This document shows positions 45,300-45,444 of a stretch of DNA of 64,000 nucleotides, one piece after another. The notes beneath the pieces were generated by a model, which worked only from the letters and a program-made list of their open reading frames with translations, was not told the origin of the DNA and did no database searches. Every line of letters starts with the position of its first letter. The first letter of the stretch is position 1. Source of the DNA: Anolis carolinensis (Eukaryota); contig NC_085841.1 in NCBI RefSeq assembly GCF_035594765.1, forward strand, positions 52,373,636 to 52,437,635, given 5' to 3'. The translations under genes and the position numbers were made by a program.

Positions 45300-45444
45300 A
45301 GGTGCTCTTAGTTCTGCTCCTCAGCTGAGGCCTCTCTGGCTTGGTTGGACCTGCCGGTAGTTACACTACCGCCAGCACAGCCCTCAGTCATCATTGGAGC
45401 AGTTAAGCCCCCCCACCACGTCAAGGTGGCACCTGCGGGGGGGG
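45300..45444 (-). ncRNA. Putative HDV-like self-cleaving ribozyme at the R4/Dong 5' end
   Basis: Minus strand helices in HDV order: P1 CCCCCGC/GTGGGGG, P2 AGGTGC/GCACCT, P3 CAC/GTG, GG for P1.1, P4 CTGCTCC/GGAGCAG, J4/2 CTAAG. Confidence 0.7.

Follow-up and report, generated by a model that had tools for sequence, protein, structure and literature searches.

The window (the whole 64-kb stretch of Anolis carolinensis DNA that was analysed) carries on its minus strand a full-length, dead copy of an R4/Dong-type non-LTR retrotransposon of approximately 3.65 kb (41795..45444), recognised from its TSD, its RT and protein identity. The TSD, (AAT)4GGTTG, spans up to 17 nt, with the 5' copy at 45445..45461 and the 3' copy at 41778..41794, the AAT portion of the latter being indistinguishable from a tail. 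The element's 5' end coincides with the TSD boundary at 45445/45444, confirming an earlier prediction from the sequence that a ribozyme-like fold begins at this point. A single ORF (41883..45285, minus strand) encodes an RT with a Pfam RVT_1 match (E 3e-22), a CCHC knuckle and a PD..D restriction-like endonuclease, and is disrupted by two lesions, a frameshift near 43741-43760 and, at codon 56, a stop. Its product shows 94-96% identity to an intact A. carolinensis protein of 1137 aa (P0001), a member of a 42-member protein cluster, and the closest solved relatives are R2 proteins. Both start at the ATG at 45285, 15 nt past the fold, so the start codon named in the original prediction is that of the intact protein. 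The element is a dead copy of an A. carolinensis R4/Dong-type family; this label is applied because of its architecture (one ORF for an RT, a CCHC knuckle and, at the C-terminus, a restriction-like endonuclease), its insertion with a TSD into a TAA repeat and a statement in PMC4350176.

Repeat units of approximately 105 bp surround the element (45797-45694, 45606-45501 and 41772-41725) and recur at 55738-55641; the two upstream units are in tandem and end in (TAA)n. The retrotransposon insertion point is the junction between the tail of one such unit and the head of the next, and the units may represent a SINE-like family from which the target of the retrotransposon arises. By eye, MITE/hAT-like inverted ends at ~45921 and ~41658 appear to flank the entire repeat nest. 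Degraded RT-like fragments with ~21% identity to P0001 were also noted at 54155-54715 (plus strand) and 22959-22375 (minus strand).

The 5' terminal fold and its register

In the 5' 145 nt of the element, both the helix-forming segments and the core bases of an HDV-type double pseudoknot are present, with complementary strands in the order P1-P2-P3-L3-P3'-P1'-P1.1'-P4-J4/2-P2' (all positions are on the minus strand). The 5' strand of P1 is a run of eight C (45437..45444), of which seven are paired from a start at 45443 or 45444, and the cut is predicted directly 5' of the first paired C; with a start at 45444, the last G of the 5' TSD copy becomes the base at -1. The 3' strand of P1 is a run of seven G (45408..45414), placed by the descriptor set out below, the Rfam alignment and folding. 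By the descriptor, a J1/2 spacer of 2-3 nt (45436-45435, with 45437 added in the second register) leads to the 5' strand of P2, AGGTGC-C (45428..45434), the 3' strand of which is G-(A bulge)-GCACCT (45300..45307). P3 (45415..45427) pairs ACC (45427-45425) with GGT (45417-45415) in three base pairs around the 7-nt L3, TTGACGT, which has U at loop position 1 (U20, 45424), G45422 at position 22 and G at loop position 6 (G25, 45419); descriptor and Rfam alignment both give these assignments.

The 3' side of P1.1 (45406..45407) offers a candidate C45407-G45422 pair with U45406 opposite U45423, with which a G at -1 may compete. The P4 domain (45314..45402), delimited by pair probabilities and family variation, comprises a 7-bp P4, a 6-bp extension and a 7-bp inner hairpin. 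J4/2 is AACTAA (45308..45313), in which the candidate catalytic C45311, equivalent to C75, is followed by a variable base at 45310, A45309 and A45308; CTAA (45311-45308) thus supplies a C-N-R-A sequence adjoining P2'. From these positions we infer that P3 is ACC/GGU and that P1.1 is a single G-C pair. In HDV-like ribozymes the first P1 pair is usually G.U or G-C and the usual orientation of the P1.1 pair is C-G. Here the first P1 pair is C-G, and the G at L3 position 3 would reverse the P1.1 pair relative to the usual orientation.

Every helix listed in the original prediction is present: CCCCCGC (45441-45435) with GTGGGGG (45416-45410), AGGTGC (45434-45429) with GCACCT (45305-45300), the P4 strands CTGCTCC (45402-45396) and GGAGCAG (45320-45314), the extension CTGAGG (45387-45382) and CCTCAG (45330-45325), and the inner hairpin CGGTAGT (45371-45365) and ACTACCG (45361-45355), together with CTAAG (45311-45307). 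The core register then chosen, with P3 as CAC/GTG and a 6-nt L3, is nevertheless likely wrong by one base. It is doubtful because P1 abuts P2 in that arrangement, and in the excerpt of Webb et al. 2016 (PMC4908430) a construct without a J1/2 spacer was inactive, while a one-base spacer allowed little activity. A ribozyme of the same class could still be drawn with P1 as CCCCCGC/GTGGGGG, P3 as CAC/GUG, a 6-nt L3, GG in P1.1 and a cut at 45441. All of its pairs exist in the sequence, and nested folding assigned CAC/GUG a probability of 0.10-0.29 versus 0.00 for ACC/GGU; the folding program models nested pairs only and has no means of building the pseudoknot by which P3 would be held in place, and it likewise gave P2 a probability of 0.00 and preferred longer alternatives to P1. 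The drawing, however, has a J1/2 of zero length, loses the U20/G25 spacing, leaves two bases unpaired after CUAA, is missed by both the strict and the relaxed descriptor and is not the register chosen by Rfam, and the 5' junctions of the family lie at 45442/45443 rather than 45441. It is regarded as very improbable.

The corrected register has the 2-3 nt J1/2 spacer and gains for P2 a C45428-G45307 pair right after CTAA, with A45306 bulged. Its L3 is 7 nt long (UUGACGU) and keeps U20 and G25, so that the caveat originally attached to a 6-nt loop vanishes. A second caveat, over a first P1 pair other than G.U, holds to the extent that the pair is C-G, but is not disqualifying given the precedent of L1TcRz considered below.

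Descriptor searches, folding and variation among copies

The strict HDV descriptor required a P1 of 7 bp, at least 6 bp in P2 (one bulge being tolerated), a P3 of three Watson-Crick pairs, an L3 of 7 nt whose first base is U and whose sixth is G, a single P1.1 pair, a P4 and C-N-R-A. Composed after inspection of this sequence, with the P2 bulge permitted accordingly, it yielded a single anchor when the 64-kb window was searched on both strands (128 kb), at the 5' boundary of the element, and no match in 5000 composition-keeping dinucleotide shuffles of the 166-nt region. The descriptor check proposed with the original prediction therefore returned a strict match at the element start. Two anchors (45427 and 10864) were obtained in the window with the relaxed descriptor, which also matched 2 of the 5000 shuffles; the anchor at ~10864 (minus strand) does not satisfy the strict L3 rule. 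Chance pairing might account for such a fold, given the low-complexity runs of C and of G in this GC-rich end: P1 is a homopolymer duplex, run lengths differ among copies and the nested fold has a z of only -2.21, with 4 of 200 shuffles equally stable. Given that no shuffle satisfied the strict descriptor and that the sole strict match in 128 kb sits at the element start, this explanation is barely credible.

The covariance-model check gave a divided result. Rfam model RF02682 (F. prausnitzii HDV), which is untuned to this sequence, placed P1, P3 and L3 of the 173 nt submitted in the corrected register, but scored 13.4 bits (E 2.5) against a gathering threshold of 44 and was one of seven weak matches. 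A scan of 40000-47000 returned six weak matches, among which HDV families were absent. In nested folding, pair probabilities were 0.98-1.00 for P4 and its extension and 0.81-1.00 for six of the seven inner-hairpin pairs, the outermost having 0.10. The P1 register from 45443 was as likely as the one in which G45445 is paired (0.41-0.43). An 18-nt core pattern searched against viral contigs gave two matches, both of which lacked the fold and were dismissed as chance.

Variation within the family was assessed on Logan contigs from 4 of the 20 runs carrying the sequence (coded as four organisms), placed on 45200-45452; no RNA run was listed among the carriers. Twenty-three variable positions were listed, 14 of them in 45300-45443, and both partners varied in five predicted pairs: 45401/45315, 45400/45316, 45382/45330 and, in the inner hairpin, two CpG pairs. 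The four CpG variants of that hairpin were discounted as evidence, being attributable to neutral decay. Under random placement of the 14 positions five pairs were reached in 0 of 200000 trials, and with the four CpG sites removed (10 positions) three pairs were reached in 34 of 200000, under a null that leaves out CpG, mutation bias and coverage and with partner changes compared by position rather than within single copies. The paired changes are pairing-restoring and mostly transitions. At the non-CpG pair 45382/45330 both halves of the G-C to A-U change are most frequent in one and the same run, X5 (27% and 35%). The comparison of pairing among family copies thus speaks to P4, where both partners vary; none of that variation falls in P1, P2 or P3. 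As all paired variation is confined to P4 and its extensions, it backs a hairpin and not the pseudoknot.

Within J4/2, position 45310 varies at 14-31%, with no listed variant at 45311, 45309 or 45308. No variant was listed in P1, P2, P3, L3 or P1.1 either, and coverage falls towards the 5' end; the invariance of P1, P2, P3 and P1.1 is uninformative on pairing. Lack of CpG decay in L3 was considered and rejected as evidence, as copies decay neutrally and contig ends were filtered. The variant G45314C, at 21-47% of depth in three of the four runs, breaks the first P4 pair. Variants at 45403 and 45314 co-vary across runs (22/0.5/38/21% and 22/0/45/47%), one base out of pairing register, and perhaps mark a subfamily with a shifted P4 end. 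Among the loose ends, P4 5' arms of CTGTTCC and CATTCC were seen, with one 3' arm, GGAATGC, that is partly complementary, and in some copies the G-run may number 9-11 instead of 7, to judge by the loose-end consensus strings.

Listed 5' loose ends in all four runs joined (AAT)n at 45442 or 45443, from which it follows that the family inserts in TAA repeats and begins with approximately 6-7 C. An 8-bp P1 starting from G45445 was accordingly rejected for the family, since the listed junctions put (AAT)n directly before the C-run. In three of the four runs loose ends also occurred at 45428, where 6-8 contigs match the P3-L3-P1' core and the sequence upstream differs; this suggests another repeat family, or a subfamily, with the same ribozyme core.

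A gene model of the cordylid lizard Hemicordylus capensis (P0004) reads through the homologous UTR. The best placement of its residues 17-33 among 127,898 window positions is at 45351, with 41 of 51 bases against 36 for the next best, and its Thr-Lys codons force C-N-A-A at J4/2; indirectly and at the protein level, this suggests that a second lizard family retains C-N-A-A. The first eight residues lie without gaps and collinearly on 45419-45396 (19/24). This match to the 5' half was discarded as stand-alone evidence, since a score of 19 is also attained at eight places in the window and by 44 of the 165 control proteins.

Alternatively, the 5' end may be a structured, non-catalytic UTR, with a P4 hairpin that acts in translation, in an internal promoter or in the binding of protein, and an HDV-like core that is a relic or a coincidence. 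Such a UTR would be in keeping with stability and paired variation in the P4 domain only, with an Rfam score under threshold and with the L1Tc 5' end, which according to the excerpt of PMC3185411 also acts as an internal promoter. The core letters and spacings are, however, all retained together at the exact 5' boundary, C-N-A-A appears to be retained in the second lizard family, and assayed ribozymes exist in the clade (PMC3774820, in excerpt); a promoter or IRES role would, moreover, be compatible with cleavage. A non-catalytic UTR is considered improbable, and a self-cleaving ribozyme is the preferred reading.

Relatives and precedents

A protein-led search for relatives of the element returned none among 32 candidate stretches in viral contigs and none among 18 in genome contigs. 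In metagenome contigs, 3 of 147 candidates were relatives (L003-L005), forming one distant family with 32-35% identity. These begin after TAA/TTA repeats or other flanks, and their first 150 nt do not align with the Anolis 5' end. No match to the HDV descriptor was found in the three, nor was any found in an Rfam scan of L004, the one relative scanned; the fold type is consequently not established for the entire clade. Common to the three are a conserved GTCCTGGGTATGAC motif and a number of mutually complementary segments (L004:68-190), preceded in two of the three copies by TAA/TTA repeats. By eye, L004:68-190 is reminiscent in layout of a pistol-type ribozyme.

Within the clade itself, the principle has been described. 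In the excerpt of Eickbush et al. 2013 (PMC3774820), self-cleavage of Bombyx Dong is confirmed at the 5' junction, downstream of seven TAA repeats, and R4 is placed among the ribozyme-bearing clades, with Ascaris R4 presented; Kojima 2018 (PMC5786205, in excerpt) counts R4 as one of six clades with 5' ribozymes. The R2 of birds is an existing case of a vertebrate retrotransposon ribozyme (PMC5035012, in excerpt). No report of a lizard R4/Dong ribozyme was found in CC-licensed PMC and bioRxiv, although the supplement of Ruminski et al. 2011, outside that scope, may list the family, and literature searches found no ribozyme for the Rex6/Dong (R4-like) elements of the green anole. Bombyx Dong/R4 resembles the Anolis element in the kind of retrotransposon, in a TAA target (Dong) and in a ribozyme fold from the 5' junction. 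The Dong primer, as given in the excerpt of PMC3774820, has G after the TAA repeats, whereas the Anolis family starts with a C-run and has a vertebrate host; the comparison covers start, target and host.

A closer likeness in the core is provided by L1TcRz/Pr77. According to the excerpt of PMC3185411, L1TcRz is active with a one-pair P1.1, and its primers read C at +1, GGT and then a P1' of 7 nt with GGG at its end, and CTAAG. The Anolis core likewise has C at +1, GGT with a 7-nt P1' ending in G, a predicted one-pair P1.1 and CTAAG at J4/2, and the two also share a purine at L3 position 3 and a sensitivity to G(-1) that is predicted for the Anolis copy; in the same excerpt, a G at -1 extending P1 is blamed for lower L1TcRz activity. 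The C start and the predicted one-pair P1.1 have precedent in this active ribozyme. L1Tc differs in being an APE-type Ingi-clade LINE with a ribozyme of 77 nt and a short P4, whereas the Anolis fold has a homopolymer P1 duplex, a predicted G-C P1.1 pair and a P4 of ~90 nt. The loop of T. brucei SIDER2 is TCAACGT, and trypanosomatid ribozymes differ in P1 pair orientation, with reversed G-C pairs, and in the make-up of P1.1 (PMC4035085, in excerpt).

The combination of one Watson-Crick pair and U:U in P1.1 occurs in a crystallised fast ribozyme (PMC13635239, in excerpt), and mutagenesis of CPEB3 supports a U-U second pair, with a one-pair T1/P1.1 plus U.U (PMC9901934, in excerpt). No direct test of a G22-C38 pair was found in the literature searched. 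R2, including that of the zebra finch, and mammalian CPEB3 resemble the Anolis fold in the helix order of the double pseudoknot, the 3-bp P3, the 7-nt L3 and the catalytic C in J4/2. Points of difference are the R2 core motif, CCUCCUCGUGG, and the cutting of many R2s upstream in 28S rRNA (PMC5035012, in excerpt).

Proposed mechanism and significance

Taken together, the fold is real and its core register needs correction, while the mechanism originally put forward is probably right and is already established for the clade. In active copies of the family the 5' HDV-type fold probably acts as a self-cleaving ribozyme that frees the element RNA from read-through transcripts. A host transcript crossing (TAA)n into the element would fold P1-P4 during synthesis, and C45311, as general acid, would act with Mg2+ to cut the RNA ahead of the first paired C, so that the element RNA would be left with a 5'-OH. 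Target-primed reverse transcription into (TAA)n would use this RNA as template, and its translation would begin at the ATG 15 nt past P2', possibly with a cap-independent leader. The chemistry and role are taken over from the ribozyme family (PMC3774820 and PMC6765202, both in excerpt).

Cleavage by the source elements is likely, and for this exact copy the balance tips only slightly towards cleavage. A (TAA)n flank would give U at -1, which is unable to pair with C45407. In the present copy, nested folding gave G45445-C45407 pairing a probability of 0.43, worth about 3.5 kcal/mol, and cleavage may be less efficient here than in the source elements, because G(-1) is expected to lengthen P1 in competition with P1.1. 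The P1 register that starts at 45443 escapes this extension.

A further idea, which we regard as unlikely, is that squamate Dong owes its L1Tc-type core (a C start and a purine-led single P1.1), unlike the insect G-start Dong, to the swapping of modules between unrelated clades; the slippery C7/G7 P1 would then make cleavage dependent on the flank, and (TAA)n targeting would keep new copies self-releasing. Hints of module swapping are the loose ends at 45428 in three of the four runs and the wholly different 5' end of the distant relatives.

The inference of a 5' ribozyme remains the best reading of this end, but is less new than the original prediction implied, as Bombyx Dong had already been shown to self-cleave (PMC3774820, in excerpt). 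With the principle already established, the finding will be expected rather than surprising to specialists. If active, the Anolis sequence would constitute a natural HDV variant for structure-function work, with a C-G first pair, a G-C P1.1, a homopolymer P1 and a long P4, and would serve as a warning that Rfam misses ribozymes of this kind. Activity would also explain how copies in scattered microsatellites, without a promoter of their own, come to have a defined 5' end, and would add to the moth and the nematode a high-copy vertebrate family with intact ORFs as a bearer of the R4/Dong 5' ribozyme.
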